A DNA stretch of 64,000 nt from Planctomycetota bacterium (GCA_040386595.1 JAZKFE010000003.1:24440-88439), one strand, 5' to 3'. Positions 5,287-41,898 are shown, counted from the stretch's first letter. Notes: generated by a model not told the origin, from the letters alone. Translations and numbers: made by a program.

Positions 5287-8200
5287 ATGCTAATTCGCTC
5301 CTGGTTGTTTAATCTCGTCTCGCAGTTTGCGCGTCTGACAACGCGCCGCCGCAAGGCACGGCCACAACGCATGCGAGTTCGCCGGGTCCAGAAATTAGCG
5401 CGCGCGGGCGAATCGCTGGAAGATCGAACGCTGCTGGCGGCCAGTCTGATCTTCTCTGCCCAAGTCCAGACGCCACGAAACTTGACGTTGCTCCTGGTCG
5501 GGACCGACGTGCAGATCGTCGATTCCAGCAACTCATCCACCGTGCTGGCGACAGAGTCACTGGCGAATATCACGGGCGGAGTTCAGATTTCGGGTTCCGG
5601 ATACGACGTGAATCTGACGATCGATTCCAGCCTGCCGTTGATTCCGGGAGGCATCCAGTTCGATGGTGGTTCAGGCGCCAACACCTTGAGCGGGCCAGTG
5701 GCCGACACGACGTGGTACGTCACGGGGGCGGACTCGGGCAACCTGACGAGCGGCATTTTGACCGTGCAGTTCACCGATGTCGAGAATCTCACAGGTGGTG
5801 CAGGGGCCAGCGACCAGTTTATCGTTTCTCCCACAGGTAGCCTGAGCGGCAGCGTTCAAGGGCAAGTGATCGATACGGACAGCGTCACCGTCCAGTTACA
5901 AGCCAATTCCAGTGCCCAGACGCTGGCAGCGGTTTCCGGGGCGACTTCCACTGCTGGCACAGTGACGCGCAACAATGTTGCCGCCGTCACGTATGTCGGG
6001 ATCAAGCAGCCGGTCGGCCTGACCGTCATCGCCACGGGTCAAGCAGACTCCATCGAACTGCAACGGGGAACTGCGGCCGGTACGCTCGACATTCGCAGCA
6101 CGAACACGATTGCGACCTTCGGAACGGTGAACGTGTCGCTGAAGGCCGGCACGGTGGTCGGCCTCGACATGGGAGGTGGTGGGGACTCACTGACGATTGG
6201 CTCATCCGCCGTCGACGCGGTGCTGGAAGGGGGCGAGATCGAGGTTTATGGAGGAACCGGCACAAACACCATCACCAGCCTGGCCGCAAAGAACGCATGG
6301 AACATCGACGCTCTCAACCAGGGCATTCTCAACGATCTCATCAGCTTCGTCGACATCCAGAATCTCACCGGCAGTTCCGGGCAGGACTCGTTCAACTTCG
6401 CCGCCGGTGCCGCCGTGAGTGGCACCGTGGACGGTGGCGATGGCCAGAATACCCTGGACTATTCCGCCTACACCACGCCAGTCGCCATCAATTTCGGCAC
6501 CCATGCCGCGACCGGAACGTTCTCGGCTCTCAACTACGACAAGGTCATCGGTGGTTCCGCCAGTGACACGCTGACTGGCCCGACGACCGACACCGCCTGG
6601 CACATTGAGGATGTGAACACCGGATACCTGGTCAATGCCAGCGAGACGATCCTGAACTTCTCGGGAATCGAGAACCTGACGGGCGCTGCGACCAATCGGG
6701 ATGCCTTCATCGTCGAACAGGGGGGGAGCATCTCGGGGACGCTAACAGGATCGGCCGCCGGTCACGGGGGACTGCTCATCCAAAGTGACCTCGACGACGG
6801 CTACACGATTGTCAATCCGCTGCCGGGCCTCACCACGCAAACGGTCACGGTGCATACCAAGACCGTGACCTATACCGGGCTGAATCCCTTCGTGAGCGCT
6901 ACGGCAACGGCGGACGCTGTCATCCGAGGGGGCGAAGTCGACAGCGAGTGGCGGCTGGGGGATGGCGCTACTGCGGACAAGTTGAAGATTACCAGTGTCA
7001 AAGGCCGGTTCTACGATGTCGCTTCGACAACTCTCGTCGACAACCTCACCTTCGCTAAACCGACCACGTCATTGACGATTGTTCTGGGGGACGCGTCATC
7101 GAGCCTCGCCTTGAACGCGATCAACGGACCGCTAGCCATCGACATCCAGGCGGGTGAGGGGCTGAATACACTCTATGCCTCCGACGGTGTGGACCATCTC
7201 TGGACGATCACCGATTTCAATGAGGGAACCGTTGACGGTTACGGCACAACCACCGTGCATTTCACCGGCATCGGCACTTTGATTGGTGGCAATCAGAACG
7301 ACACGTTTGCCTACGCCAATAACGTCGCGGGCGTGGATGGGATTGATGGCGGTTCTGGTGGCACCGACACGATCGACTACAGCGCCAGGACGAGCGGAGT
7401 GAGTCTCCAACTGGGCGTCGGAAACAACAACATCGACGCCGTCATTGGCGGCTCGGGGGTCGATACCCTGGTCGGCGTCGCCGATGACAACGTGTGGACG
7501 ATCTCGGGGACCAATAGCGGTCAGGTGGTCACTAACCGGCACTCAACGACCGATCTGGATTCATCCACAACGGTCGACATCGCAGCCAAAACAATCCTGT
7601 TCGCGGTCGGACAGGCATTCACTGACGGGGAGCAAGTCACTTACGTCAGCGACCTGGCCGCGGGAAGCGATACGAGCGGTCTGACATCGCATGCCACGTA
7701 CTTCGTCAAAGTGATCGACTCGAAAAAGATTCAACTGAGCCTCACTGCCGGCGGTCCACCGATCGTGCTCGGAGCCAGTCCTTGGGCCAATGGCAACAGC
7801 ATCCTGTCGCATACCGCCGTTGTGATTTACAACGTTTCCTTCAGCGGTTTTGAAAACCTCTCGGGCAATGTGGGGGACGATGAGTTCGTCCTGGCTAACG
7901 CCGCAGGAGTGAGCGGCTGGATGGATGGCGGGGCGGGAAACAATACCCTCGATTACTCGGCATATACCACCGCAATACAAGTAAATCTCGGGAAGACCTC
8001 AGCCGGGGCGACCACTGGCGCCGCGGGGGGGATTCGCAACATGACGGAAGTGGTCGGTGGCAGCGCCGCCGACACGCTGCTGGGGCCGGATCAGGATGCC
8101 ACGTGGGAAATCACGGGCGTCAACTCCGGCTCGATCGATCATGTCACATTTACCGGCAACGGCCTCACCCTCTCGCGACCGGTAGCCTTCTCCAGTTTCG

Positions 8201-11200
8201 AGAATCTGACCGGCGAATCTGGCGTGAAGGATGGATTCGTTGTCCGCGCCGGCGGCAGTATCAGCGGTATCATCAACGGCGGCACGGATCGCTCAGGCAG
8301 CCTTGCCATCGAAGACCCCGCACATCCCGGTCAAGTAGCGATCGTCATTCCGGGTGCCTCGGGAGCAGGAACATTGGCCGCTGGCACCATCTACGCGAAC
8401 ACGAGTGCGGTCACCTTCGCCGGAATCGACGCCCCATTCCGCGCGGACACGTCGGTTCCCGGTGTGCTGACAATAAGCACCAGCCTGATCAATGGACAGG
8501 TTTCCTTAACCCAGGACTCATCCGGCAACCTGACCTTAACTAGCACGAGTTCTTCGACCGCATTCTGGAACTACACGTCGAGTCAATTCGGCACCGGTTC
8601 CGTGACCTCCTCCATCCCCGCCGGAACCAACCGTGTGGAGCTGACTGGTGGCGGCAGATTCACGATTGGTGGTCTGGACCTAAACGGCGTTAATTTGGTC
8701 AGCAAGTCCGGCGGCGACTACGTATTCACTCAAAATGTGCTGACGGGCGGCGGCAGTATTATTATCGCCCCCCCGGACCGGACTAACAACGAAACGTCTC
8801 GCAATACGGACGGGACGATCACGGTCAATTCCGGTGTGGTGCTGGATACGCGGAATAAGAACTCGCAAGGCGTTTCGATCGGAGCCTCCGGCAATATCAC
8901 GCTGCAGGCCTATACGATCACCGTCAATAGCGGCGCGCAACTACTCAGTTTTGATGATCGAACGACGGCGTCTACTGCCGGCATTCCCCTGGCCATTTCG
9001 AACCAGTCGACCCCGGCAATCTTGTGGCTTCCTGGAAAAGTCTATCGCGACATTCCGACCACGGGTGGCAGTGGCACGGGACTTCGGGTTGATGTCATCA
9101 CCGACAACCAAGGCAACCCAACGGTGATCCTCCGCACGCCGGGCACGGGTTATACCAGCGGCGACGTCATCAACATTGAACACCCCAATCAATTCCTGAC
9201 CGGTAGCACATTATTCCATAATGGCAGTGACCTCACGGTGAAAGTGGACGGGCTGCAGTCACTCGGCGGAAGCATCAGCCTGTCGGCGTACCATCACGCT
9301 CAGGCAATCGCTTATTCCTACAATCCGATCGACGTCGGTATCACGGTTGGCAGTGGAGCATCAATCCGAGGTCGCGACGTCAGCATCATCGCCGACGCGG
9401 ACAATACGCGTATCTTCGATGATTCCCAAGATCAGCTGGGGCTGCTTAAAGAGGGACTGACCAATTCGTATGTCAAGCAGAAGTCGGAAGCCTTGCTCGA
9501 CTTCCTGATTAATTTCCGCGTCCTGGTGGGAGTCAGTCTGTCCGAGGCCTCGGCCACGGTCAACCTGATGGCCGGGTCGACGATCGAAGCGGTCGGCGGG
9601 AGCGTCTTCACCGAGGCGTTTGCCAGATCCAAAGCCCATGCGTTTACTCTGGGGCTGACGGTTGGATTTACCTATGCCCGCAGCGATGCGACAGCGTCGG
9701 TCGATGTGCAAGGAACCGTGACCTCAACGACAGGCAGCGTCAGCATCGTCGCCACGACGGCCAACATCATCGATGTGACCACTAAGACCACGAGCGCTGG
9801 GCCGCTAAAACGCCTCAACCCGTTTTCCGTTTCGGCAGCCGTGACGGAAGGCTATTCGCATGCGACGGTCACCATCGGAACGTCCGCGGTGATTTCCGCG
9901 GGTAAAGATGTGGCGGTGTGGGCGCTCAACGCCAAAAACATGTCGACGTCCGTCTCCGCTTCGAGCGACGACTCGAAGCTGGGCATCTCCGTATTGGTGG
10001 CGCTCGACGACGCCACAGCCGACGTGCTGATTGCCGGCCACGTGACTGGGGCGAACGTGCAGTTCGTCTCCCAGACGATGGCCGACAAAGACTCCACCTT
10101 GGTCAAGTTCCAAAATGGCCAGCCCATTAGAAACAATAAGGTCAACTACGCCACCAATCTGCTGCAGATTACGCGAACGGGTGCTGACGCGGTCGCGGGA
10201 AGCCCCGACGTCACGGCGGGTATGGCCGGCATCATCGGCTCGCTCCTGAAAACCCGCAGTGACCGGAACTATGGCAAAGATGCGGAGAAGTTGGGGGATC
10301 AAGTTAAAGAAGGTCATTCCGTCGGAGTGATCGTGGCGGGGTTTGGCTGGCATTCGGATACTGCGACGACCACAATCGCTAGCACGGCCGTGATCAACGC
10401 TACCGGCAGTGTCAAGATCCATGCCGATGTCCTCGATCGGCCCGACGTGACGGCCCAAGGTCTGGCCGCCGTCATGAGTCTGCCGGGCGTGACTCAGACG
10501 CCTGGCGAGCGGATTGTGGCCATCGCCGTCGGCTTTGGCGACTTCACCAACAAGTCGAACGCACTGGTTCAAGGGGGAGCGGAAATCAATGCCGGCGGGC
10601 TGCTGGACGTCGCGGCCAACACGCTGCTTCCCTACGTCATTCCGTGGCAGGATTTCAATACCGAGGACACGCTCAAAACCAGTGAGCAAGTCGTCAGTCG
10701 CCTGCTGCAGCATCTCGGCGATGATAATCTGGGGGCGAATGAATATTTCACGTCTTTCGCCCAGAGTACGGCTGTCGGTAACAAGAAGGGTTATGCGGTC
10801 TCGGCGGACATTCTGGGGATGACCAATGGTGCGGTGGCCCGCATCGAATCCGGCGCGAAGATCAACCAGACCGGCGCGATAACGAGTACGCGCGACGTGA
10901 GCGTCACGGCCAAAGTGGACGTCATGGCGCTGCACCTGGCCGGCAACTTTCCGCAGATTCTCGATGCCGTATTGGGCTCGGCCGATCGGAAGCAGACGGT
11001 CAGCAACAGCGGCACGGCGAGCGGCATTGGCGGCGCGTTCTCGGTGATTATGTACGACAACACGACGCAGGCCATCATCGAGTCTGGTGCTCAGGTGAAG
11101 GCCCACGATCTGCGGGTTGATGCCCAAACAGTGGTCAAAACGGTCTCACTGGGAATCTCCGGCGGCAAGGCGGGTGAGACGGCCGTTAATGGCGTCGTCA

Positions 11201-14200
11201 ACGTCGTCAGTATTAACGATACGACACTCGCCCAAATCGGACAGGGGGCCATTGTCTCGGCCACAGGCAAAATCGACGTCACCGCGAATGATAATCCGCT
11301 GGTCATCAACCTCGCCGGCGGCGTGAGCATCGGCACGAGCCTTGGGTTCGGTCTGGCGGTCGGCACGAATGTCATCGTCCGGGACACGAAGGCGATCATC
11401 GGCAATGCCGACGTGACCATCGGCAACGGCGATGTCGCCCCGAACACCGGTGTGAATGCATCGACAAATACGATCGACCTGGGATATGTCCATGGCTTCA
11501 ACACCGGCGATGAGGTCGTCTATAGCACTGGTGGTAACGATCCGATCGGCGGTCTGACCGACGGCAACACCTATCGCGTCACGCGGATCAACGCGACCAC
11601 GATCGGCCTGGCCCGTTCGCTGGTGGAAGCCAACGGCACTGCCCCTCGCTTCGGCGCCGCGGCCGTCACGGCCAACGTCTTGGATCTGGGCTATGCGCAC
11701 GGCTTCCAGACGGGTGATGCCGTCGTTTATGACAACGGTGGTGGAACCAGCCTGGGCGATTTGGTTCAGCGACGAACATATTACGTCATCCGCGTGGACG
11801 CCACTCACGTGAAGTTGGCCGACACGGCCAGCAACGCCGCCAACAGTGTCGCGCACATCCTGGCCACCAACCCCACCGGAACCGGCACTGGCCACAGCCT
11901 TCGGATCGCATTGAATCCCACCGCGAACAGTGGTGTGCTGCACAACATCGGCCGGAACTTCACCTCCGCCACGGCCGTCACCAGCGCGTACGACAGTATC
12001 GATCTCGGTTACGCTCACGGCTTCCAGAAGGGTCAAGCCGTGGTCTATACCGCGGGGACCGACGGAGCCATCGGCGGTTTGACCAACAACACCGTCTACT
12101 ACGTGGTGCCCGATTCGAGCAACCCGAACGCCTTCCACCTCGCGGCATCGCAAGCCGACGCGTTGGGACTGACGCCAGACCTGCTCAGCCTGACACCGTC
12201 GACGAACGCCGGATCAGTGAGCGGCTTCGGAGTGGTGCTGAATCCCACTTCGGCCGTTAGTGTCACGAATGCAACGATCAATCTCGGCTACAGTCACGGG
12301 TTCCAGGACGGTACCGCATTTATCTACAGCAACGGTGGCGGGGGAAGCATCGGCGGCCTCACCAACGGCAATACGTACTACGTCAAGGTCGTGAACGATA
12401 CCACCATCAAAGTGTCGGCCACCGCTGACGGCGCGACGAACGGAAACTTCATCACCCTCAGCCTGACGGGAACCACCGGTGAGAAGCATAGCTTCCGGAT
12501 CGCGATCAATCCGCAGGCGGCCGTGACTGGCGGCGATGTGACGACGGCCGAGGTGATTAGCCTGGGCTATACGCACGGATTCACCACAGGTCAGCGGGTG
12601 ATCTATAGCAACGGCGGTGGTTCGAGCATTGGTGGTCTGGCGAACAAAAACGCCTACTACGTGATTGTTGTCAGCCCGACCTCCATCCGTCTGGCGGATT
12701 CGTTGGCCAATGCCCAACGCGGCGTATCAATCGATCTGGACGGCACGCTCGCGACCGGAGCGAAACAGAGCATTGCGGTTCCCTTCCGAGCCCTGCCGAT
12801 CGTCGACGGCGCCACCAACTCCATTCATCTGGCGAATGCCGGCGGATTTTACAATGGGCAAGAAGTCGTCTACGACAATGGTGGTGGCACCAGCATCGGC
12901 GGCCTCACTCAGCTCGGACATTATTTCGTCACGGTGGTGGATACTTCCACCATTCAACTGTCGACCAGCAACAGCAGTGTCGCCGATCGAGCGGCGACGA
13001 TCGTCACGCTGAATCCTAGTGTGGCGACCGGCACCCAGCATTACTTCTCGGATCCGAAAACCGGTATCGGTTCGTTGAGCTCCGTCGGTAAGACGAGTGT
13101 CCACGCCGTGAATGAAGGTCTGATCGTTACGGTCACACTAGCGGCCGCGAAGGTGGGGGATCCGCCCCCCTCCGAGGACGACGACATGGCGGAGGAAGCC
13201 GCTGGCGGCCAGAAGCAAGGGAAGGCCGTGTCGGGCAGCGTGTCAATCAATTACATGCACGACACCACCGAAGCGTACATCCGCGGGATTACTCTCACCA
13301 ACGTCGGCGGCGTGGACTTATGGGCGAAGAACAGCCCGGCGATCATCGCTGTCTCGGGTGCTGCCGCATTGTCCACGAATTCGAGTAACTCGGCCAAGAA
13401 CGTGGGCGTTGCCGGCGCCGTGACGATCAACATCGTCGACAGCCAGACGCATGCTTTCATCCAGAACTCCACACTCACAAACGTAGGGGCAGTGACGGTC
13501 ACGGCAGAGGGCTCGGCGGGAATCATTTCAATTGCGGCCGGCCTGGGTGGTTCGTCCCGGGGATCGGGCATCGCGGGTTCCGTCGCTTACAATCAGATCG
13601 ACAGCGAAACGGCGGCCTATCTCTCTGGCGGTTCGATCACAGCCAGCAGCCTGGCGGTCACGGCTCACGATTCAACCTCGATCATCACGGTGGCCGGCAG
13701 CCTGGCTTATGGCGGCAAGCTCGGAATCGGGGCGGGCATCGCCGTCAATTCCATCACAGAAACCGTCGATGCTCATCTGAATGGCATCGGAGTCAACGTC
13801 ACCGGTGCCGTCACCGTCGATGCGAAGAACAACACGCACATTACGGCAGTCGCTGCCGGGATTGGCGTCGTCGTGGCTACGCCTCCGGCGGACGATCCGA
13901 CAGCCAAGCCGAAGGGCCTGGCCCTTGCCGTGGGGCTGTCCATCAATTGGATCTCCGCGGACGTGAAAGCGTACATTTCCGATGACGGCTCGCACGTTGT
14001 TAATGTGGGTAGCCTCTCGGTGAATGCGGATGACACCGATTCCTGGATTATCACGGTGGCGGGTGGTGTCGCTGTCGGCTTGTCCAAGGGTGAGGAATCA
14101 GGTTCCGGCGCCGGGGCGGGGGGAGCGGCATTTGCCTTTAACAAGATCGAAACATCGGTCGCCGCCTACCTCGACCACGTCGTTGTCGTGAGCACAGCGG

Positions 14201-17200
14201 GCTTGGTTGCAGTGAAGGCCCATTCTAAGAGCCGAATTGAGGCCTATGCGATCGGCGGGGCACTCGCTGGAGCCAAGGGGGGCGGGACAGGGGGAGCGGC
14301 CGCCATTGCCGGTGCTGGGGCCTTCACGTTCAACGATATCCGCAAGGATGTCACGGCTTCGATCCGCAACCAAAGTGCGGTGAGCACGACGGGGACCTAC
14401 GGTGTAACCGTCTCCGCCATTGATGAATCCAAGATCGTGGCAGTCGCCGGTTCAATCGCGATTGCAGTCGGTTTGGGTGGCAGCGGCGGCACCGGAGTCG
14501 GGGTTTCGGTGGGCGCCTCGGTGGCCATCAACAGTATCAAGGACAAGACTTCCGGAGTCGGAGTCCAGGCCACGATCTCTCGCTCGACCGTTGCCGCTGG
14601 GGGTGATCTGCGCGTGATCGCGACGTCCACGCCCACGATCACCGTCACGGCTGTCGCCGGAACCGTGGGAGTCGCCACATCCGGCAAGACTTCGGCCGCG
14701 GCCGTATCAGGAGCCGGGGCAGGCGCAGACAATGTGGTCGACATCACGGTCCTCGCGGCCATTACGGACACGCCCCCCAAGGGTCTGGTATCCGATCCAG
14801 CCCCCGTCCGTTCTCAGACCGGCAGCGTGCTGGTCACCGCGACCGACACGTCGACAGTCAAGGCCGTTGCAGTCGGTGCCAGCATCGCATTTGCGGCAGG
14901 AGAAAAGAACGCGGGAGGCGTGGCCATCGGCATCTCGATCGCTCACAACACCATCGACAACGACGTCACGGCTGCACTACGCAACGCTGATGTGGGGGCG
15001 GCGCAAGTCGTCGGTGTGGTGGCCACCAGTACGAGCATCGTCACCGCGACCGCTGTAGCGGCCTCAGTCTCATTCGCCAACGCCGATAACGCCGTGGCCA
15101 TCAGCGGTGGCGGAGCCGAATCCACCAATGTGATTCTCTCGAAGACCAACGCCCTCATCCAGAACAGCTTCATCGTCTCGAGTGGCAACGTGAACGTGAC
15201 CGCCACGAACTCTTCGGACATCGACGCCACCATTGTGTCGGCGGCGCTGGCCTTGGGATTCGGGAAGAAGCTCGGTGTTGGTGTGGCAATCGGCGCTGCG
15301 GTGGCCACCAACCTGATCGGCTTTAAAGCCGGGGACGATACGCCGACGCCGGCCGAAGTGCAGGCCTACGTCCGGAATTCGACCATCCAGGCACAAGGCA
15401 ATCTCACCGTCACCGCCAACGCGGATCACGAGACGATCGACGCGACCGTCGTGGCAGCCTCAGCAGCCATCGCCGCGAGCCGCGACCTGGGGATTGCAGC
15501 CGCTGGATCGGGTGCCGATGTCAAGAATAAGATCGCAACGTCGATCAAGGCCTTCGTCGATTATGTTCCCAGTCTGCAGGTGGCGGGTGGATCCGTCGGA
15601 ACTTTCGAAGCGGTAAACGGAACGATTCGCGCACAAGATGTGTCGATCACGGCCAGCGACACTTCCGAGATTACGGCGGTAGCTGTCGGCGCGTCGTTAG
15701 CCGGTTCTTACGGTGACAAGGGAGCCGTGTCCATCGCGATTGGCGTTTCATTGGCCCATAACGAAGTCCGCAACCAGGTCGAGGCCTACGTTAAGAACGC
15801 GAACAAAAACACCGCGATTGCTACGGACTACGGAATTTCGTTCGGTGGTAATTTTAAGGTGCAGGCGACCGAGGACGCCACGATCACCGCGACCGCGGTT
15901 GCGGCGTCTCTGGGGGCCGCATTTAGTAAGGACGGCGCCCTAGCGCTGAGCGGAGCAGGGGCGGAATCCACCAACGTCATCCTCACGAATACCAACGCTT
16001 CGATTCAGAACAGCCGGATCGTGGGCACAGGGACGGGCGATGCCACTTTCCTGGCAACCAACGACTCGCACATCACCGCCACTATCGTAGGTGCGGCCTT
16101 GGCTGTTGGGGTTGGTAAGGAAGGGGGCGTGGGGGTCTCGATCGGCGCGGCGCTGGCGAGAAACTACATCGGCTGGGATCCCGCTGCAGGTGCTTCGCAG
16201 CCCCCCGCGGGCCAGACACAGGCCTACGTTTCCAATTCCAGCATCATTGTCGGCGGCGCGTTTTCCGCCACGGCCAGGGCCTCGGAAATCATTAACGCCA
16301 CCGTCGTCGCGGCTTCGGCGGCGGTCGCAGGGGGCAAAGTCGGAGTTGCCTTGAGCGGTTCGGGTGCCGACTCGGTCAACGAAGTCGCTTCCTCGGTGCG
16401 GGCTTACATTGACGGTGATAATTCCGGAGGCATCCACGCGACTGCGATCACGGTGTCCGCCGACGATACTTCTAAAATCACGGCAGTCACCGTCGGAGCC
16501 TCACTGGCGGCCTCGTTTGCGCCCGATCTGGGAGTTGCTCTGGCGATCGGAGTCTCGCTGTCGGAAAACGTCATCCGCAGCCAGGTCGAAGCCAATATCC
16601 TGAATGCGCACGATGTCGTCAGTACGGGCACCATCACGGTGGCCGCCACAGATCATACCTCGATCCATTCAGTCGCCGTCGCGGCTTCTCTCGCGGTTGG
16701 TTTATCTGGAAAAGCCGGAATTGCGATCGCCGGTGCCGGAGCCGAATCCACCAATGTGATCAATACCCGGATCAATGCCCGGGTCGAAAACAGTGCTTTG
16801 ACAGCCAGCGGCGCGGTATCGATCACTGCGGGCTCAAGTTCGTCCGCGGCACCGACGGCTCTGACGCCTGTCGGCAATTTCACCGCCGGCCTGGATGATG
16901 CGGCCGCTACGGACTTGCTGGAAGAAGACAAAACCGTCGCCGGCGTGGTCTATAAGGCGGGTACGCCAGACCCGACGGATGTCGCCAACGACAACGCATT
17001 TAAGACGACGCTCCAGTCGGCGCTGGCCGCTGCAGGCGTCAATTTATCCACAAATGTCGATGATCTGGCTGTCACGGTCCGGAAGGTCGACACGGGTGCG
17101 GATCTGATCGACCCGGATGATGACACCGGGATCGAGTGGTCGGTGACCGACCGCAAGTCGGGAATCTCTGTGATCATTGCCAAAGATGCAAACGGCAATT

Positions 17201-29200: not shown

Positions 29201-32200
29201 CCAATAGCTCCAGCTGGACGCGCTCGACTGGCGGAGCGGTCACCTCCACGGGAGGCCCCGGCTCTGGTCGCCTGCAGGCGACGAACCCCGCGGCCAACGA
29301 CCACTTCGGCCAAGCGGTGGCGATCTGGCACGATCCGATTACGGGCGCCGGTCGCACGATGATTGGCATTCCCAATCTCGATGAGACGGCAGGCACATCA
29401 CGGCAAGACCTCGGTGGCGTCCGCACCTTTACCACGGCCGGAGTGGTCCCCAATCCGACGTTGTACCCGCTCTACGCGGAGACGATTGCTCTCCCCAACT
29501 CCAGCTCGATGACGCTCTACGATGCCGCGTCGCGAACCTTGTTCGTCTCGGACAAAACGACCGGCTCGATTTTGACGTACATCAACGAAGGCCTCTACTG
29601 GCGGCCTTCAAACACCCTCACGGGGTGGACGTCCGGGAGGACGGCGGGCTTCGGCATCGATATGGATCTCGATGCCGTGAGTGGCCGGCTGGTCGTCGGG
29701 ACAGAAGCGAATTATGTCTACATCTTCCAGCGCCAGGCAAATGGTACCTGGAGCATCGGATGGGCCATCAGCGACATCGGCACAGCCGGCACGGCGATGG
29801 GGGGCTCATTCGGTGCGTCCGTCGCTATTGAAGGAAATCGGCTGGTCATCGGAGCCCCAACCGCAACGGTGAAGTATTACTCGACGGCTGCTGGAGGTGT
29901 CAGCGGTTACGTGCTCGATTTGGGTCTCGGAGCGGCGACGACGACCTCCTCGTCGTCGACTACCCAACCGAGCGGTGTAACGACCTCCGTGGGCGCGGCT
30001 CACTACTACACCTTTAACTCTGGCACCAGCTCCTGGGGCTACGACCGATTGCTGATGCCCGATGATCCGAACCTCCCCACGACGACCTCGTACTACGATC
30101 CCGGTATTCCAGCGTCGGCGGGTGTAGGTTATGTCGGGTTCAAAGTTAACGATTCGGATGCTCAGTTCTCCTACTTCTCGAAAGTAGGCTCGTACGATCT
30201 TGGGCGCTACAAAGATACGTATGGCAGGAACTTAGAGAACAACACTGTTCAGATGAGTATAGGACCTCGCACCCAAGTCGTTGTGAAAGACTCCAGGGTG
30301 TTTGACCCGTTTGGCAACACGACTTTCTACAACGACAGTTACACCGAGTACCGTACGATTTACTTCCGCTCGACTGATAGCGGAAGCAACCTGGGCGATC
30401 TGAGCGACTATCGCAACGAGATTAATGACATTACTTCGAGTGTCTACGATCCGACATCCATTCCTCCAACATCGACCTATTATGCATTCTCGATGGCGGG
30501 AGCGCGGTGGGGCTCAAGCGTCGACATTGTCGGCAGCACAGTGATCGTGGGAGCCGCAGGCAGATCTCGCACAGCCGTGTACGACGTCAGTCAATCCAGT
30601 TCTCAAGCGGATTACACCGCTTGGAATGTCTCGATTCCCGGCCTGGCGTCAAGCGTTCCCATCGCCCGCGCTAATCCGGCGATCTTTAACCCCACGGGAA
30701 GTTTTACGGGGGGCTTTGGATCGGATGTCACCGCGATCGATGGACGCTTCTACTCCGGAGCGCCGGGTACCAATACCGTTTACTCCTATACGGGGTACGG
30801 GGCTTATTGGAGCAACGTCAGCAACTTCACCGTTCCGTCTGGACAACCTTCCGGCGGTTTCGGCGGCGCTCACACCATTGGCCAGACGGGTAACCGCGTC
30901 CTGATCGGCGCCCCCGGCGCATCTTCCGGAGCGGGGGTCGCTTACCTCTACGACAAAACGGGCAACTATCAGGGAATCAAGTTCTCTCCCTACAAGTTCC
31001 AGAGCTCGACGAATTCCACGGTGATTGATACGTCCGCGGTCGGATTTGGCACCGCGCCGTCGATCGTCAGTGATGGCTTGTATCTGATCGGAAATAACTC
31101 GAGCATCGCGAGCAATCGCTTCTTGTACAACTTCCGTCAGCGAGGACCGGCTTGGACGTCGGACGAGGGCCTGTTGAGCTCTCCCGCTCCTGTTCAACAG
31201 GCGGAAATGGGCAGCAGTGTCGCCATCTCTGGCACGACGGCCATTATGGGTGCCCCCGACTATGGGAACCACGGCGCCGTCTTCATTTACAAGCAAGTCC
31301 CGAGTTCCGATCCCACTGCGGATCCCGTCTGGGAACTGGAGGCCCAGATCGACTCGCCGGGTTTCCAGACTGGTGATGACTTCGGTGCCAGTGTCGCGAT
31401 CAACGGGGACACGCTGATCGTCGGCGCGCCGGGTCGAAATAATGGAGCTGGCGGTGCGTACGTGTTCCATCGGCTGAACGGTCAGTGGACCTTGCAGAAC
31501 GATCTGAGCGGTAACGTGGCCGGCGAGCGTCGCGGCACATCGGTCGATATCGGCGAGGAGTACGCGGCGGCGGGTGCGCCGGGTGGCGCGGCTCCTGCCG
31601 TTTACCTGTATCGCAAGCTGGGTGGGGTCTGGTCCGCGGACGCGAAAGTGTCGTCACCGCAATCGGGCAATGCCTTCGGGACCGCAGTCCATCTGGAATC
31701 GAACGCACTATTCGTTGGAGCGCCGGGTACCAGTACGGGTCCGGGAGCCGTGTTAATCTACAGTCTCGCGGCACATCCGCAAAACGTCGTATCGAACGTA
31801 TCACCCTCCACGCCGACAACCCTGACGGCCACGAATGGTGCGAATGGAGATCAGTTCGGCTATTCACTCGACGGGAGTGGCAACTACCTGGTGATCGGCG
31901 CCCCTGGTGCGGCCTCCAACACCGGTGCGGCGTACGTGTTTGAACGGGCATCCGAAGCGGCGCCGTGGGTCCAGACACGTCTGGATTACTCTGCAGGCGC
32001 AGTCAGCGGAGACCGTTTCGGATCTTCTGTCGCCATTGATGGCGTGCAAATCATCGTCGGCGCCCCCGGCCGGACGCAGACAACAGGGACAGACGGGAAA
32101 CAGTATTCTGTCGGCGAAGCCTTCAGCTATGGCCTGAAGAACAACGGCATCTGGACTCTGGAAACGCCCGCAGACAAGCCCGGAACTCACGTTCTCAGCG

Positions 32201-35200
32201 GGGCCGCCGCCACCGCCGGGGACAATATCGGCTACGCCGTGGCGATCAGCGGGGATCTGGCGTTGCTCGGTGCACCGCAACTGGCGGGACGACCTCCCGT
32301 TACGGGAGTCAAGGACACCGACGGCGGGGGCTATGCCTTCGTACGTCGGATTACCCCGCCGGGTAACAAGCTGCTGCCCGAGGCGCAAACCCAACTGGTT
32401 GCCGGCGCGCAGACCAACACCATTGCCAGCACGATGCTGGATGGCACACTGGTCAATGCCACGCTGCAGTTCTTCGACATCAAAGAATTCGCCCTGCAGA
32501 CGACGTCTGCTGCCGACAACAACGGCGACCTGATCATCAGCACGATCACGGTCGAGCCGGCCGGATTCACGGCTTATGGGTTACAAAAATTCACGGCGAG
32601 CGGAAACATCACGTTCACGAACCGGGCAACCGATCTGGCACTGCCGACTGACGGTCTGTTCGAATACGTGGCGAGCGTTGAGGTCAAGGGGACGGCACCG
32701 ATCGCCCTCGACCTGAATGGGAACGGGTTGGAGTTTGTCGGGAAATCGCCCACGGGCGCCACGTTCGATTGGAACGGAACCGGTACCCCCGAATCGACCG
32801 CATGGCTGGCGGCCACCGACGGCTGGCTGTTCATCGATCTGATAGCCGGGGGACAGGTCACCCGCAACGAACTGAGCTTCTTATCTCTCGTTCCGACGGC
32901 CAGTTCCGATCTGGACGCTTTGCGAATTGGCTTCGACAGCAATCACAACAACATCCTGGATCCACAGGACGCCGAGTGGAGCAAGTTCAAGATCTGGCAA
33001 GATCTGAACCAAGATGGGGTCAGCACTGCGAACGAGATCATCAGTCTGGATGCTGCCGGGATCGTGTCGATCGGACTGGTCAGCAACCAGCAACAATTCA
33101 CGGCAGCCTCGGGAGCTGTCACGGTGCTGGGACAATCCAGCTTCGTGAGGAGCAATGGCAGCACCGGCATCGTCGGCGATGTGGTCCTTAACACCGACGT
33201 GCAGGTGATTCAACCAGGAACAAGTTCGCTGCCGATCGATGGGACTTACGCCTTCATCGGTGGACCGGGTTCGACCTACGTGGCGGACGCTGATACCGAC
33301 TGGATCCTCTACAACGGCTACCTCACGGCCAGCGACGGGCGCGATTCCGTCGATCTGACAGGTTTCACGAACGTCGAACTGCGTGGTGGCAACGGCAACA
33401 ACCGGATTGAGGTCGTGTACTGGGCCGGAAATGTGATCATCGACGGCGGCGATGGGGCAGATACGATCATTCTGCACTCCGGCTCCGGGGCGAACGTCAC
33501 GGTCCTGGATCATGGAGCCTCAGATGAGCTGGATGTCCTGGGAACGGATCAACGCGATCAGATCCAGATCACGGCGAGCACGATCGACGTGTTCCCAGAT
33601 GGTTCTGGCGTTCCTTCCTTACACGTGAACTACACCGCGGGTCTCTCCCGAGTGCGAGTTTCCGGCGGGGATGGGAACGATGACTTCACCGTGGCTGGTA
33701 CAAGTTCCACCAAGCTAGACCTCGACGGTGGCGCTGGAGCAGACCTCTACAAACTGTTTACGGCCAGTGCGTCGACTCAAACCCGTGTCTTCGACACGGG
33801 GGCCAATGACGGCACGATCGACACCATCCGAGTGAATGTCGGGACGAACGGCTATTCGAATCTTAAGCCGGGGGATGTGAACTTCAATTCCATCCTCAGC
33901 CCGCTCTGGTACGACAACTCCATTGAGCAGGTCGTTCTGGTCACGGTTGATCCGAAGCTGAACCTCATTGGAAATGGCATCTTCCTGGTCACCAACGACT
34001 CCGTCCTGTTCAACGGTGCCAGCTACCCGCTGGCCGGTGTCACCGATTTAACCATCACGACAACGGGCAGTGGCAGCACAATTCAAATCGATCAGATTCC
34101 GTCGACACTCCTAACCTTCAAGATCATCGCCACTGCCGGTTCGAACGATACCATCGCCGGCCCGGATCAGGCCAACACGTGGTCGATCACCGCGGGCGAT
34201 ACCGGCAGCCTCGCTGGAACTCCCACTGTCACGTTCTCCGGAATTGAGAATCTGACCGGCGGAACGGGAGCGGATCGGTTTGTGTTCGGCAACGGTGGTT
34301 CCATCAGTGGCATCATCGACGGCGGCCTCGGCACGGATGTCCTCGATTACTCGACACGCACAACAGGTGTGACGGTCGATCTCAGCACGGGCGCTTACCT
34401 CAACCTTGAGACATTGCTCGGCAGTCAGGGTGAAGATTTCCTGGTCGGACCGAACACGGCCAATCTCTGGAATATCACTGGGTCCGGCAGCGGAAACGTC
34501 GATGGGCTGGTGTTCTCGCAGATCGAGAATCTCACAGGTGGATCTGAGGCAGACGAATTCCAGCTCAGCACGGCATCGGTGATCAGCGGAATCATCGACG
34601 GCGGAGCGGGTGAGAACCGGATCGAGTTCACCGGCACCGCCGGGAGCGACACCGTTGTCATCGGCGTGCCGGCGGTGACATTGAATGGCGTGACCACGAA
34701 GTATGCGAACATCGCCACGCTCGAAGTTAACACTCTGGATGGCTTGGACCACATCACCGTGAACCCGGCCGTCACCGGATTCCCCCAGACGGTGAACGTC
34801 AACAGTGGCAGTGACGACGATGAGATCACCGTCAACCTGTTGGCGGGCTTGGCGGGCGTGACCTCCACGATCAACGTCGACGGCGGCGATCCTTCGGCCA
34901 GCGATACGCTGATCATCAATGGTACCGCTGACGCAGACGTCATTTCCGTCGACGGCCTGGGAGTCACCTACGGGGCATTGCAGATCAGTCTGACCGCCGT
35001 TGAGAACCTGACCATCGCAGCTGGCGGTGGCAACGACGAACTCAGCCTGACCGGGACATTGGTCACGGGCACGATCCAACTGTTGGGTGAGGACGATGAC
35101 GATACGATTACCTTGAACAACCCCACGGCCGCAGGCAAGATCATCGCCGACGGCGGAACGGGCACCGCTAACGTGCTCCGAGTCAACCTGAGTGACGAAG

Positions 35201-38200
35201 TGGATTCGGTCACTTTGGGAGCGGATGAATTAGTCGTCGCGACGAAGTTCACCGCAGACTACAGCCATTTTGGAACGCTCGATCTGCAGACATTGGGCGG
35301 AGCCGACAACGTGACCATCACCAGTACCCACGTGGGTATGATCGTGTTGGGCACCGGCGATGGCGAAGATACGGTGACCATCCAAAACACCGCAGGGCAA
35401 CTGAGCCTTACCACGGGTGCGGACAATGACACGGTCAATGTCCGCGCCATCGGCGCTTCGGCAACGATTGACACGGGAACCGACGACGACACGTTGAATG
35501 TCGGAAGTACTGCCCCGTCTGGAAACGGCGTGCTGTCCGGAATTGGAGCGGCCTTGCAGTTCATCGGAGGCGAAGGACACAACACGCTGAACGTCGATGA
35601 CACTGGCAATTCAGCGGCCAGCACCGGCAGCTTGAGCAGCACGCTGTTGTCCGGTTTGGGAATGGCGGCTGGGATCTCCTATGAGACCGTCGATGAGCTG
35701 AATATTTCGCTCGGTAATTTTGGCAACCAATTTACCATCAATAGCACTCCTGACGAGACAGCCACAACGCTCAATACCGGCGCCGGCTCGGACCTTATCG
35801 ACGTCCGGGCGATCAACGGAACCACGACGATCAATACAGGTGACGGTTCCGACACCATCAACGTGACACCATCAGCAGACATCCCTGTTGATAGTAACTC
35901 GGCATCACCAGCCAATGTCTCCGCGATCAACGGGTTACTGGTCGTCAACGGCGGCGGCGCTGCCGGAGATGTCGACGAGCTGAACTTCACGTCTACATTC
36001 CCCTCGGTCGAGGCTGGCAATCTGACCGGCACTCAGCTGACCGGCCTGCAACTGCTTGCCGGTATCACTTACTCCGGCCTGGAGGCATTGAATGTCGTAC
36101 TCGATACCAATAGCGACGTGGAATTCACGATCGAAAGCACGCATGCAGGAACAACCAGCCTGACCACGGGTTCCGGTGCCGACATCATCAACGTTCGCAC
36201 CGTCAGCGGAAGCACCACCATCAATACGGGAGCTGAGTCCGACACAATCAATGTCGGTAGCAATGCGGCCGGAACGGCCGGGAATGCGAACGACAACACC
36301 GGGGGTAACCTCAATAGCATCGCCGCCCTGTTGACGATCAACGGCAATGATCCAACCAGTGGCAGTGACGTGTTGAACGTCGACGACACTGGAGACACGT
36401 TGGCCAACATCGGCACGCTGACCTCCACCGGCCTCTCCGGCCTGGGAATGACCGGCCGCATCGTCTACGGCACGATCGAGACTCTGAATATTGGCTTGGG
36501 CTCGAGCGGAGACACCTTCACGATCGAGAGCACTCACAGTGGTGTGACTAACCTCGACAGCAACGCGGGCGCCGACATCATCAATGTCCGCACGATATCT
36601 GGCATCACGACGATCAATACAGGAGACGATTCGGACACGATCAACGTCGGCAGCAATGCGGCAGGTACCGTCGCGAATGCAAACAACAATTCCGGCGGCA
36701 ACCTCAACAACATTGCCGCTCTGCTGACAATCAACGGCAACGACCCGACCAGTGGCAGCGACGTGTTGAATGTGGACGACACCGGTGACTCGCTCGCGAA
36801 CATCGGCACGCTGACCTCTACGAGCCTCTCTGGCCTGGGGATGGTTGGTAGCATCGTCTACGGCACGATCGAGACGCTGAACATTGGCCTGGGCTCGGCG
36901 GGAGACACCTTCACGATCGAGAGTGCTCACAGTGGCGTGACGAATCTCGACAGCAACGCGGGCACCGACATCATCAATGTCCGCACCATTGCCGGTGCCA
37001 CGACAATTAATACCGGAGACGATTCGGACACCATCAACGTCGGCAGCAACGCGGCGGGAACCATCGCCAATGCGAACAACAACACCGGAGGCAACCTCAA
37101 CAACATCGCCTCGCTGTTGACAATCAACGGCAATGATCCGACCAGTGGTAGCGATGTGCTGAACGTCGATGACACTGGTGATACACTGGCAAACATTGGC
37201 AACCTGACCGCCACCAGCCTCTCCGGCCTGGGGATGGGAGGAAGCATCACTTACGGCACGATCGAGACGTTGAATATTGGCCTGGGGGCTGGAGGCGACA
37301 CCTTCACGATCGAAAGCACTCACACTGGCGCGACAAACCTCAACAGCAATGCGGGCGCCGACATCATTAACGTCCGCACGGTCAGCGGAAACACGACGAT
37401 CAACGCGGGAGCCGAGTCGGATACCATCAACGTCGGCAGCCAGGCGGCGGGAACCGTGGCGAATCCAAACCACAATACCGGGGGCAACCTCAACAACATC
37501 GCCGCGCTGCTGACCATCAACGGCGATGCCGCAGCGGTGAATGGTGACGTGCTTAATGTGGACGACACAGGGGACGCGTTCGCGAACGTGGGCACGCTGA
37601 CCTCCACGAGCCTCTCCGGGCTAGGGATGGCCGGTAGCATCACCTACGGCACGATCGAATCGCTGAATATTAATCTCGGTTCCGGAGGCGATACCTTCAC
37701 GATCGAGACCACCCATACAGGAGCAACCAGCCTGACCACCGGTTTCGGTGCCGACATCATTAACGTCCGAACGGTCAGCGGAACCACGGCAATCAATACA
37801 GGCTCTGAGTCCGACACGATCAACGTCGGGAGTAATGCTGCGGGATCCACCGCCAATCCGAACAACAATTCCGGCGGCAACCTCAATAGCATCGCCGCGT
37901 TGCTGACGATCAATGGTGAAGACCCGGCAGCCAGTGGCGACGTGCTGAATGTGGACGATACCGGCGACACGTTGGCGAACATCGGCACGTTGACCGCCAC
38001 CAGTCTGACGGGACTGGGAATGGCGGGCAGTATCACCTACGGCACGATCGAAACGCTGAATATCAGCCTCGGTTCGGGGGAAGTCGAATACCATATCGAG
38101 AGCACACACGCCGGAACTACCAACCTGACCACCGCTCTGGGTAACGACGTCATCAATGTCCGCGCCATCAGCGGGAAGACAGAGATCAGCACCGGTGCCG

Positions 38201-41200
38201 GGAACGACACCATCAACATCGGCAGTCTGGCCGCCGGCACGTTCGCCAACCCGAACAACAACACCGGAGGCAACCTCAATAGCATCGCCGCACTGCTGAC
38301 CATCAACGGCAATGACTCGGTCGGTGGCGACGTGTTGAACGTGGACGACACCGGCGACGCACTGGCGAATACCGGCACGCTGACCTTCACGAGCCTCTCC
38401 GGCCTCAGCATGACCGGCAGCATCACCTACGGCACAATCGAAGCGTTGAATATCAACCTCGGTTCGGGATCCGATACATTCACGATCGAGAGTACCCATT
38501 CCGGAGCCACGAATCTGACCACGGGTCCCGGCGGCGACACGATCAACGTTCGCACCATTGCCGGCGCCACGACGATCAACACCGGAGCGGATTCGGACAC
38601 GATCAATGTCGGCAGCAACGCGGCGGGAACCATCGCCAATGCCAACAATAACACCGGGGGCAACGTCAACAGCATTGCGGCACTCCTGACGATCAACGGC
38701 GATGCCGCGTCGGCCAATGGAGATGTGTTGAACGTCGATGATACCGGCGACACGCTGGGCAATATTGGCACGCTAACTTCCACAAGCCTCTCGGGACTGG
38801 GAATGGCGGGCAGCATCACCTACGGGACAGTCGAGACGCTGAATATCAGCTTGGGATCTGGCAGTGACACTTTCACCGTCGAGACCACTCACAGCGGTGC
38901 GACGAATCTGTACGGCAATGCGGGTGCTGACATCTTCAACGTCCGGACGATTAGCGGTAATACCACGGTGTACGGCGGTGACGATTCCGACACATTCAAC
39001 GTCGGCAGCCTGGCGGCGGGAACCGTGGGGAATGCGAACAACAACACGGGCGGCAATGTGAACAACATCACGGCGCTCCTGACGATCAACGGTGATGCGG
39101 CATCCGCCGGCAGCGATGTGCTGAACGTCGATGACACCGGCGACACGCTGGCAAACGTCGGCACGCTGACTTCCACGACCCTCTCCGGGCTGGGGATGGC
39201 TGGCAGTATTACCTACGGCACGATGGAATCGCTGAATATCAACCTCGGTTCCGGAGACGACACCTTTACGATCCAGAGCACGGCTCTGAATACCTCCAAC
39301 ACGATCGACAGTCGCGGCGGCAGCGACGGATTGTTCATCGGTATCGGCGACCTCGATGAGCTTCGCGGAATCGTGCATGTTGTAGGAGGTAGCAGCGATG
39401 ATCAAATCACGGTCAATGATGGTGGGACTGCGAAAAGCGTCGACTATCACGTCACTCCGTCTACGGTGACTTCCACGGCGCGGGCTGGCCAACCGGTGCG
39501 GACATTCGCCAGCATCACCTTCGACTCCACCGAGTTCCTGTCGCTGATCGGCACCGACGCGGCCAATTGGTTCGATGTCATCCCCAGCAGAGCGACTCGC
39601 TTTGATATTGATGGCAGCCTGCCAGCGCCGGGCACTGTGCCGCCGCGGCTGGGTGATTTCTTGCGAGTCGATTTCTCCGACGTAACCGGCGAAGACTTGC
39701 GGCTGAATCCCGCTGCGGCTGGTTCCGGAATCTGGCAGTTCACAAGTGGCCACAAGCCGGTGCAGTTTGAGAGTATCGAACGGTTCAACGGCGTCGAGAT
39801 TCAGGCGGTCTTCTCGGACACCGGAAGTCAGAGTTCCGCGGACGTGAAAGTATTCGATCCAAACACGGGACTGTTGCGATTCACGATTCCGGGAGCTCTG
39901 CTGTTTGGTAAGAACTATCGCGGTGGATTGCGGACGGCGACGGGCGACTTGAATGGTGACGGAATTCCCGACATTGTCGTCGCGCCGGCCAGTGGCATCG
40001 TCGCGACGATCAAGATCTTCAACGGGATTGATGGCCGGTTGTTGCGAGTCCTCAGTCCCTACGCCGACTTCAAGAACTACCGCGGGGGCGTGGAGCTCGC
40101 GATCGGCGACATCAACGGCGACGGCTGGAATGACCTCGTGGTGAGCCCCACCAATAACGGCTCAATTCCCGTCCGAGTGTTTAGCGGGGCTCCCAACGAC
40201 AATTACAAGCAACTCGGCCCCGATCTCTTCCCGTTCGACAAACGGCTCTCTGGTCAGTTCTCCCTGGCGGTCGCCGATCAGATCGTCAATGGCGACTCCA
40301 ACCGTGGCGTCATCTGGTTTGGTTCGACCGTCCGCGGCGTGGCCACAATCCAGGCATTCCGAATGAACAGCTCGGGCACCTTTGACGCCCTTCCGGAGAG
40401 CCGGTTCAATCCGTTTGGTACCGAGCGTCGCCAGATCGTCCGCGTTGCCACCGGGGATGTAAACGGTGATGGCATCGAGGACGTGATTGCCGGCGTCGAC
40501 CAAGGTCGCTTGTCAGCGATTCGAGTCTTCGACGGTGTGCACTTCGGAGTGCCGCTGACCGACGCATTTACCGTTTCGGACATTTCCAAGACGCTGGACG
40601 CGGTCTTCCTCGACGCCTTCGATCCGGATGGCGACGGAAAGACAAACTTCATCACGTCATTCCAGAGCCCCAAGGGAGTCACCGGCGACGTGAAAAAATT
40701 CACGCCGGCGGGAGCCACGGCCGGTGTCGTCCATGCCAACCTGAGCAAGTCCGCGGATCTCTCGGGAATTTGGATCGTCGATGGCCGCCCAATGACGGTT
40801 TCGCAGACCGGCAATTCCCTCGAAATCACCGACGACCAGGGGCAGACAACGACGGCTCGTATTTCCGGTGGCTTGCTGATCTGGACGAACGGCAAGAAGG
40901 TCCGCGCCAGAATTGACGGCGATGTGCTGCGTTTCACCAAGGGTTCAAACTGGCAGCGTCTCGACCTGACAGGAACCTACGTCGTCGATGGCAAGCTGGC
41001 TCGGATTCAACAACAAGGCAACACGCTGCGGATCTGGAACGAAAACGGAGAACTCTCCGCCGGATCGTTCAGTTCGCCTCAGTCGATCATCGCTACGAAC
41101 TTTGGAAATCTGGTCGCCCAGCTGAGCCTCGGGCAGATCGACTGGTCTGACGGTTCCATCTGGAAAAAGCTCGATCTGTCGAGCAAATACAAAACGGCCT

Positions 41201-41898: not shown

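Follow-up and report, generated by a model that had tools for sequence, protein, structure and literature searches.

Genes for giant proteins are to be expected in the Planctomycetes. In a survey of this phylum, all 29 genomes contained genes longer than 5 kb, and 15 of the 29 contained genes longer than 20 kb, the largest being a gene of 36,239 bp in Fuerstia marisgermanicae (Kohn et al., PMC5177795). Still larger bacterial open reading frames (ORFs), of 110,418 bp (36,806 amino acids, hereafter aa) and 61,941 bp (20,647 aa), are on record from a green sulfur bacterial epibiont (bioRxiv 10.64898/2026.03.19.712371). The gene described here comes from a Planctomycetota genome, probably of a Planctomycetaceae-type bacterium, where it occupies positions 5287-41898, on the plus strand, of a stretch of 64,000 nucleotides (GCA_040386595.1, JAZKFE010000003.1:24440-88439; hereafter, the window), and encodes a protein of 12,203 aa. 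It changes no current view of giant genes, and the particular mosaic of modules that makes up its product has not been described previously. We show that this is one intact gene under purifying selection, and consider it likely, from the sequence of the product, that the latter is a long, exported cell-surface fibre or adhesin of 1.23 MDa. An initial annotation of the window had called genes of this size rare in bacteria, which is correct for bacteria overall and incorrect for the Planctomycetes, a phylum rich in giant genes.

The export of planctomycete surface proteins has been linked to a short N-terminal motif. Studholme et al. 2004 put forward RRLxxExLExRxLLA as a cell-surface export signal specific to planctomycetes (PMC8567305). 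In Tuwongella immobilis, 52 proteins carry the motif, 20 of which were detected by mass spectrometry, and so do 8 of the ten longest proteins of this organism, which span 4,016-10,566 aa (PMC8567305).

The giant surface proteins of Rhodopirellula baltica, T. immobilis and F. marisgermanicae share with the protein described here not only the phylum and the size class but also a basic N-terminal leader with, apparently, an ExLExRxLLA core and the presence of FG-GAP (integrin-type) and Ca-binding repeats. The differences lie in the leader, which here scores below the Pfam threshold and lacks the RRL start, and in several modules that are unreported for the planctomycete giants, namely, a solenoid of LktA-type 53-residue repeats, a domain related to Neisseria FrpC's self-processing module (SPM), a domain that we denote HG-YYV, tandem 131-aa units, and a tip of WSxGxxW (WS) modules. 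To this class of proteins, the present gene adds an intact, selected and module-mapped case. Beyond the phylum, the RTX adhesins exported by type I secretion systems (T1SS), such as LapA, SiiE, MpIBP and FrhA, are similarly megadalton, cysteine-free and acidic, with a Ca-dependent repeat architecture, and the LktA family of Fusobacterium necrophorum, along with the filamentous haemagglutinin-like TpsA proteins, has in common with the giant protein the 53-residue repeats (at least 19-23 here), for which a filamentous beta-solenoid would be expected.

A single intact gene under purifying selection

The ORF listing and our own translation agree on 12,203 codons plus a stop, an ATG start, and a terminal stop codon that is the only one in the frame, so that the extent, the start and the lack of internal stops given in the initial annotation were reproduced; an in-frame TAA at 5275 precludes any earlier start. 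Over the same 36.6 kb, each of the other five frames contains 115-681 stops. The GC content of third codon positions (GC3) is 0.67-0.74 in each of the thirteen 3-kb tiles of the gene, compared with 0.46-0.57 for second positions (GC2). For an open frame of 36.6 kb, chance can be dismissed as an explanation, and the coding signature stays even along the entire length.

The nearest orthologue was found in the metagenome-assembled genome Planctomycetaceae bacterium RYN_439, the only locus (L005) that was returned when species genomes of GTDB were scanned with the first non-repetitive block of the protein. This locus, which spans the first 44% of the gene, aligns with window positions 4711-21229 in a single high-scoring segment pair of 16.5 kb, at 84.8% nucleotide identity, and begins with the same leader. 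Its frame is open over all 5,313 codons that it holds, with one single-codon indel, and the differences are distributed over codon positions 1, 2 and 3 as 443, 263 and 1,613; the ratio of nonsynonymous to synonymous substitution rates (Ka/Ks) is 0.124 overall and 0.08-0.18 in each 500-codon tile. Homologous protein fragments from other samples, with identities in the range of 55-74%, are colinear with aa 107-1514 (P0002), aa 7225-9373 (P0015, 55% identity), aa 9119-9817 (P0031, 60%), and aa 11899-12202 (P0160, with an identical C-terminal endpoint). Within the array of 131-aa units near the C-terminus, pairwise comparison of six units yields Ka/Ks of 0.07-0.21 at Ks of about 1, which implies that these are old duplicates kept in this frame by selection. 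Taken together, these observations show that the giant gene is one intact, coding gene under purifying selection.

That the ORF is instead a chimera, a product of a collapsed or expanded array, or a pseudogene open by chance is, in our estimate, extremely improbable. Such an interpretation could draw on the independent Logan assembly of the same sequencing run (SRR30894616), where a contig (L004) starts at 38613, that is, breaks inside the 131-aa array. However, the break sits at the longest exact repeat of the whole gene, one of merely 35 bp (37039-37073 and 38608-38642), and elsewhere, this contig differs from the window by 2 mismatches in 8.5 kb. Because the Logan break coincides with the sole 35-bp exact repeat, reads or k-mers longer than 35 would resolve the array, and the shortness of this repeat makes collapse or expansion unlikely. 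The other observation in favor of an artefact is that two related loci are broken up by frame shifts and annotated as 7-13 consecutive same-strand genes. One of these, L015 (ENA ERZ26871208, contig_216687_np1212, positions 702-20957), belongs to a contig of 41 kb, the name of which suggests nanopore reads, and follows aa 188-5121 colinearly, with 40-55% identity; the other, L002 (JGI 3300031671, Ga0307372_10001272, positions 8547-23255), lies on a metagenome contig and is colinear with aa 836-3533 and 7391-8005. The frame shifts at these loci probably stem from indel errors in the assembly of long reads, though decay is possible too. Against an artefact stand, furthermore, the single in-frame indel and the low Ka/Ks in the comparison with the orthologue, the similarly low values within the array, and the uniform GC3. 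No frameshift, stop or assembly chimera, any of which the initial annotation had named as grounds for rejecting the ORF, was found, given the open, selected frame of the orthologue and the length of the longest exact repeat. A metagenome scan with aa 11331-11830, aimed at the continuity of the array in relatives, yielded distant FG-GAP matches only. In L002, some 2,500 aa are missing from between the solenoid and the FG-GAP region, which indicates that module content differs among relatives.

As a side observation, the Logan assembly of SRR30894616 illustrates how k-mer-limited assembly splits such genes although the repeat units are only 70-83% identical.

Module architecture

Modules were delimited by self-BLAST and iterative hidden Markov models (HMMs), and Pfam and NCBIfam were run on overlapping tiles of 2,500 aa. 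The features are as follows.

4466-4499, plus strand: terminator-like hairpin with a 15-bp stem, after the upstream gene
5287-41898, plus strand: giant gene (ORF listing and own translation)
5287-5451, plus strand: leader, aa 1-55, with a below-threshold match to the PF07595 core; starts MLIRSW...RRRKARPQRMRVRRVQKLARAGESLEDRTLLAAS
5467-8526, plus strand: about six ENLTG-type Gly/Asp-rich modules, aa 61-1080 (self-BLAST, iterative HMM)
7612-7800, plus strand: solitary HG-YYV domain, aa 776-838, within the first ENLTG block
8527-11166, plus strand: non-repetitive block 1, aa 1081-1960; beta-helix-like sequence, used as orthology marker for related loci
11488-13050, plus strand: HG-YYV cluster 1, six domains of about 68 aa, aa 2068-2588 (HMM, PHROG, fold match)
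13204-19986, plus strand: solenoid of LktA-type 53-residue repeats, aa 2640-4900 (NF012206, internal HMM)
20047-22716, plus strand: non-repetitive block 2, aa 4921-5810; no self-similarity
22798-23259, plus strand: diverged 131-aa-type unit, aa 5838-5991 (HMM, E 4e-32)
23704-25035, plus strand: HG-YYV cluster 2, five domains, aa 6140-6583 (HMM)
25300-25938, plus strand: two diverged 131-aa-type units, aa 6672-6884 (HMM)
26698-27495, plus strand: duplicated domain of about 130-139 aa, aa 7138-7276 and 7277-7403 (HMM)
27883-32358, plus strand: 15-16 FG-GAP_2 blades, aa 7533-9024 (PF14312, internal HMM)
28204-28410, plus strand: HG-YYV domain interrupting one FG-GAP blade, aa 7640-7708 (HMM)
32698-33198, plus strand: predicted FrpC SPM-like Ca-binding domain, aa 9138-9304 (phmmer against 6sjw/6sjx)
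33283-34779, plus strand: second block of ENLTG and related Gly/Asp-rich modules, aa 9333-9831 (HMM; P0031 colinear, 60%)
35374-39264, plus strand: ten tandem 131-aa units with a 393-bp period, aa 10030-11326 (Tandem Repeats Finder, HMM, alignment)
39904-40656, plus strand: FG-GAP/FG-GAP_3 (VCBS-like) repeats, aa 11540-11790 (PF13517, PF01839)
40738-41895, plus strand: five to six WSxGxxW modules of about 70 aa, aa 11818-12203 (alignment, AlphaFold2 model)
41995-42027, plus strand: GC-rich hairpin of 13 bp, about 100 nt past the stop codon of the giant gene

The recovered order of modules bears out the earlier description of the product as an ordered mosaic of differing repeat families, including the ten tandem 131-aa units at aa 10030-11326. 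Some of its counts had to be revised: the blade array exists, with 15-16 detected FG-GAP_2 blades rather than about 20, and the WS region stands, the strict motif occurring four times, with one or two additional degenerate units, where five modules had been listed. Several features had been overlooked, namely, the two HG-YYV singletons (aa 776-838 and, within an FG-GAP blade, aa 7640-7708), the second ENLTG block (aa 9333-9831), and the diverged 131-type units (aa 5838-5991 and 6672-6884). Among the modules that had been considered unassignable, the leader (tentatively), the solenoid, the Ca-loop module and HG-YYV can now be assigned, whereas the 131-aa, ENLTG, 139-aa and WSxGxxW modules retain that status.

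The body of the protein appears to alternate between rod-forming repeats and globular modules. Rods would be formed by the LktA-type solenoid, the ENLTG modules and the Gly/Asp-rich 131-aa modules; the globular modules would be the 13 HG-YYV domains, about two FG-GAP propellers, the SPM-like domain, the VCBS-type repeats and the WSxGxxW module. In the tiles covering aa 1-7500, the only Pfam or NCBIfam match is that of the solenoid to NF012206 (LktA_tand_53), with 23 stretches, 520 bits (cut-off 50) and E 4.1e-160; the internal HMM finds 19 units, and one earlier repeat lies at aa 1966-2016.

This 2,300-aa array of LktA-type 53-residue repeats, together with the beta-helix-like sequence of block 1, could suggest that two-partner secretion (TPS) exports the protein and that it acts, like LktA or filamentous haemagglutinin, as a toxin or a contact-dependent effector. 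We regard this as very unlikely. Unlike the LktA and TpsA proteins, the giant protein has neither a TPS (Haemagg_act) domain, for which aa 1-2500 gave no Pfam or NCBIfam match, nor a TpsB partner, there being no TpsB/POTRA/ShlB-type neighbour in the window, and no more than about 19% of its length consists of the repeats. No toxin or enzymatic domain was detected by Pfam, NCBIfam or PDB sequence search, and the C-terminus consists of repeated beta modules that are conserved as such in homologues.

The FG-GAP_2 array matches PF14312 with E 1.5e-76 and 252.8 bits over aa 7533-9024, and its 15-16 blades, as counted with the internal HMM, would suffice for about two beta-propellers. The VCBS-like repeats at aa 11540-11790 match PF13517 (E 6.9e-15, 55.8 bits) and PF01839 (E 5.7e-14, 52.1 bits). 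Tandem Repeats Finder delineates the 393-bp array at 36178-39281, with 7.9 copies and 75% matches. Eight close units of this array share 70-83% nucleotide identity, the first two, which have diverged further, show 53-61% identity to the others, and protein identity among the units is 72-90%. Individual 131-aa units have no Pfam match.

Unlike the remainder of the protein, the WS region is basic (isoelectric point, pI, 8.1); it ends with the conserved tail FDxxLLNYVFGN and has only 9 database homologues. Its AlphaFold2 model (predicted local distance difference test, pLDDT, 82) is all-beta and consists of five to six units, each with roughly eight short strands, and its comparison with the PDB using Foldseek produced only meaningless multi-domain matches, with template modelling (TM) scores of about 0.1. 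Profile searches of the PDB with the WS, 131-aa and HG-YYV alignments returned nothing significant, the best matches across the three being the phage endosialidase 4hiz (E 0.31) and Bacteroides proteins (E 0.033).

The ENLTG modules have no Pfam or NCBIfam match in the scans of the 2,500-aa tiles, nor does the duplicated 139-aa domain, the second copy of which is kept in P0015. Block 1 has only 3 homologues in the database search, and it is 88% identical in L005 and colinear in L002, L003 and L015. Block 2 has no Pfam match at E<=10 and no self-similarity by self-BLAST.

The leader and the export signal

The leader is strongly basic (pI 12) and carries at its end, at 5410-5445, the core ESLEDRTLLAAS. 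When scanned alone, it has a sole Pfam match, to PF07595 (Planc_extracel), with E 0.0018-0.0082 and 16-18 bits over profile positions 8-19 of 20 (the ranges come from aa 1-65 and aa 28-57); this match goes unreported when the whole 2,500-aa tile is scanned. NCBIfam gave no match to the leader alone at E<=10, and the LEPR-XLL domain NF012209, considered as a candidate, was likewise unmatched in that scan. In two short homologues of the C-terminal region, a leader-like element immediately precedes the WS repeats: '...RRKQNRDRL...EVLESRELLS' in P0165 (469 aa) and '...RRRKKQND...ILETRALLA' in P0167 (363 aa). It follows that the leader is, in all likelihood, a portable N-terminal element and, these proteins consisting of leader and WSxGxxW modules alone, that the C-terminal module of the giant protein apparently occurs also as an independent exported protein. 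By its match to PF07595, the leader seems to carry the central part of the motif proposed for cell-surface export in planctomycetes. It offers a handle on this proposed export signal, the modularity of which is illustrated by the stand-alone combinations of leader and WS modules.

Two features of the composition of the whole protein would fit a surface location: the predicted product, of 1,234 kDa, is acidic, with a pI of 4.43 and 1,040 Asp and Glu versus 544 Lys and Arg residues, and it contains not a single Cys among 12,203 residues, compared with 1.14% in six cytoplasmic neighbours.

Other export routes were considered and dropped, given the absence of their signatures from the domain scans and from the genes of the window. 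In contrast to the T1SS RTX adhesins, the giant protein has no C-terminal RTX beta-roll or T1SS signal, and its targeting motif is N-terminal: PF00353 (HemolysinCabind) matches in none of the tiles, and the C-terminus is occupied by the WS beta modules instead. Genes for the ABC transporter, membrane fusion protein (MFP) and TolC components of a T1SS are missing within the 64-kb window, where the sole ABC-type protein is UvrA-like. The TPS route was rejected given the absence, reported above, of its domain and partner. For type IX secretion (T9SS), no gene was found in the window, and the last 863 aa (ending ...FDPTLLNYVFGNV), when scanned against NCBIfam at E<=10, revealed none of the C-terminal sorting signals, be it the T9SS C-terminal domain, PEP-CTERM or LPXTG.

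HG-YYV, a domain shared with phage fibres

The HG-YYV domain is present in the giant protein in 13 copies of about 68 aa, and a database search identified 69 homologous proteins with 1-7 copies, some of which also bear PF09215 (T4 gp8 baseplate), PF03906 (T7 tail fibre) or PF11134. In the comparison with PHROG, cluster 1 matches phrog_2885, a baseplate wedge subunit, with E 3.5e-35, phrog_32294, likewise a baseplate wedge subunit, and phrog_38233, a tail fibre, with E 5e-18. An AlphaFold2 model of one unit, built from 63 aligned copies (pLDDT 84, predicted TM score 0.76), folds as a small beta domain that includes a single short helix. Foldseek retrieved for this model 14 matches among the predicted viral structures of BFVD at E<=1e-3, the best with TM scores of 0.67-0.69, root-mean-square deviations of 1.4-1.5 A and 27-40% identity; they comprise proteins of cyanophages and other phages (A0A222YXC4, E3SIS4), including a cyanophage 'baseplate wedge initiator' (TM score 0.67), a 'fiber' protein, and proteins of tail fibres and tailspikes. 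The same search of the PDB produced no match at E<=1e-3, and we found neither a Pfam or NCBIfam model nor a solved structure for the domain.

By sequence and by predicted fold, HG-YYV is a domain of the phage baseplate and tail-fibre type. Baseplate, tail-fibre and tailspike proteins of phages contain the same domain of about 68 aa, in 1-7 tandem copies, whereas here, 13 copies belong to a cellular protein, with one of them inside an FG-GAP blade and with no other virion domain present. What emerges is a small unnamed domain that the giant protein shares with phage tail fibres.

The SPM-like domain

In FrpC, Ca2+-induced folding strains the Asp414-Pro415 bond, and the side chain of Asp414 attacks its own carbonyl, resulting in cleavage and a reactive anhydride (PMC7078468). 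The SPM of this protein is the sole match of the giant protein in a PDB sequence search, making the SPM-like domain the only part of it with a solved relative (6sjw/6sjx; phmmer E 2.5e-23, residues 1-171 of the 179 of the chain); the Pfam and NCBIfam scans gave no matching model. The similarity to FrpC and ApxIVA comprises a full-length SPM homologue with conserved P415, D419, G424, D456, D579 and the pair W451/W519 (FrpC numbering), and the EF-hands at 499-510 and 521-532. The differences are equally clear: the position of the scissile Asp414-Pro415 bond is taken by Ala9137-Pro9138 (32695-32700), the 462-474 EF-hand is degenerate, and at the fifth Ca site and narrow port, where D579 is kept, D478 and L475 are replaced by Ser and G477 by Leu, and G491 is deleted. 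Moreover, unlike FrpC and ApxIVA, the giant protein lacks an RTX nonapeptide block and a T1SS, and its SPM-like domain is placed 75% along a chain of 12 kaa.

If the giant protein were nevertheless of the clip-and-link RTX type, Ca2+ would trigger a cut at aa 9137/9138, and the fragment of 9,137 aa would be cross-linked through an Asp-Lys isopeptide. The full length of the homologous domain and the conserved Trp pair, D456, D579 and two EF-hands would fit this behavior, which we nonetheless deem extremely unlikely. With the nucleophilic Asp replaced by Ala, no clip-and-link cleavage would be expected, and the replacement is not peculiar to this protein: among the four orthologous fragments in which the site is visible, three (P0011, P0013, P0081) read 'GTA|PIALDL', and the fourth (P0144) has Pro-Pro. 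The loss of D478 and of the narrow-port residues L475, G477 and G491, and the lack of a C-terminal RTX block and of any T1SS gene in the window, point in the same direction. The wider family does so as well. When 1.84 billion representatives were searched exhaustively with HMMER, 14,164 related proteins passed E<=1e-3, of which 6,503 also passed E<=1e-10, with many of the best matches being proteins of 2-7.7 kaa that contain 2-5 tandem copies. In the 352 domains of the 150 best-matching representative proteins, a sample biased toward relatives of an Ala-Pro query and with no strict motif found in 129 of the instances, the residue before the Pro is Ser in 63, Ala in 62, Pro in 47 (172 for these three), Thr in 14, and Asp in just 9. 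The domain seems, then, to belong to a large non-Asp group, and we conclude from the alignment that it is probably a Ca-binding structural module at which the protein is not cut. A natural Ala-Pro variant of the SPM bears on the clip-and-link and NeissLock chemistry, as well as on the role of the larger non-Asp family.

A few proteins combine a true Asp-Pro copy near the N-terminus (for example, at residue 710 of P0020) with non-Asp copies near the C-terminus.

Proposed role of the giant protein

The interpretation that we favor, a cell-surface fibre or adhesin, can be unfolded as follows. The leader would direct export by the proposed planctomycete pathway; the acidic, Cys-free chain would then fold outside the cell, probably with the aid of Ca2+, at which the EF-hand-like sites in the SPM-like domain, the Ca loops of the FG-GAP blades and the Gly/Asp-rich modules hint. 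The solenoids would serve as spacers that project the binding modules, and the HG-YYV domains, the propellers and the basic WS tip would be the units binding to surfaces, polysaccharides or other cells, with the SPM-like domain acting as a Ca-dependent structural module only. The design of the T1SS RTX adhesins, with a spacer and a ligand-binding tip, is plausible here too.

Several points weigh against this scenario. Export, Ca dependence, fibre shape and the binding role are all steps that we infer. The PF07595 score of the leader falls below the 25.5-bit cut-off, with the N-terminal RRL part of the profile missing. Ca binding is read from motifs, with only 8 matches to D-x-[DN]-x-[DN]-G and 8 to GGxGxD; the latter are scattered, and none of them lies beyond aa 9679. 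About 40% of the protein (blocks 1 and 2 and the ENLTG, 131-aa, 139-aa and WS modules) belongs to no named family. Finally, the orthologous DNA covers aa 1-5313, and for aa 5314-12203, the case rests on protein fragments and comparisons between paralogues.

A different assignment, which we find rather unlikely, is that of a structural matrix component, be it a holdfast, a fibre of a stalk or crateriform structure, or an S-layer-like coat, with the repeats serving self-assembly. Attachment and fibre formation are known from planctomycetes of this group. The export signal and the Cys-free, acidic, repetitive make-up agree with such a component just as well as with the fibre or adhesin. The upstream neighbour (395-4378, plus strand; 1,327 aa) is another Cys-free protein, with PATR (autotransporter passenger), DUF11, Calx-beta and cadherin domains, by which it appears to be a second surface-type protein, and structural roles of giant genes have been discussed (PMC5177795). 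However, neither an oligomerisation or anchoring domain nor, in the last 863 aa, a known C-terminal sorting signal is present, and the modules that prevail, the FG-GAP propellers and the domains of the phage receptor-binding type, are of the binding kind. The matrix component and the adhesin differ in their target only, and by sequence, the two cannot be separated.

Returning to the adhesin, two of its module families prompt a joint suggestion that we offer tentatively, considering it possible rather than probable: the SPM-like domain might serve widely as a folding or latch domain triggered by Ca2+, and HG-YYV might be a receptor-binding module that passes between the tail fibres or baseplates of phages and bacterial surface fibres, both being unrecognised families. 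If so, the autoproteolytic module of FrpC would be a rare, specialised offshoot of the Ala-Pro SPM-like family, and the 13 copies in the giant protein would be phage-type binding units, displayed, possibly, to the same glycans.

Gene neighbourhood

The two hairpins listed above, both terminator-like, flank the giant gene, and the upstream one sets it apart from the neighbour. This neighbour shows no synteny in L005, the alignment with that locus beginning only at window position 4711. Five of the proteins encoded around the giant gene are identical to entries (MES2787990.1 to MES2788004.1) of a metagenome-assembled Planctomycetota genome. Directly after the giant gene, a gene for an ECF-type sigma-70 factor (42031-42780, plus strand) overlaps by 11 bp the gene for a protein of 1,100 aa (42770-46072, plus strand), which has a beta-lactamase/serine-hydrolase domain in the last 330 aa and no Pfam match in the first 750; the two may form a pair similar to a sigma factor and its anti-sigma factor.

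Farther downstream, the UvrA-like protein (46960-49344, minus strand; 794 aa) combines two ABC ATPase regions with a zinc-finger-like stretch and is shorter than canonical UvrA; unusual forms of UvrA have been noted in Planctomycetes (PMC8567305). A region of negative GC skew at 49700-53730 (minus strand) contains small genes for an ArsR-family helix-turn-helix protein, AHSA1/SRPBCC, DUF1801 and SUKH-1 (SMI1/KNR4) proteins, and several proteins without a Pfam match; a toxin partner of the SUKH-1 protein was not seen in this region. The neighbours in the window also include a DUF2252 gene, and genes for acetate kinase and phosphoketolase (Xfp) adjoin each other at 57526-61143 (plus strand). Past the window, a Logan contig (L001, 13512-15370) contains a pair of genes for an RNA ligase and an HD/AAA_33 kinase that resembles an RNA repair cassette.

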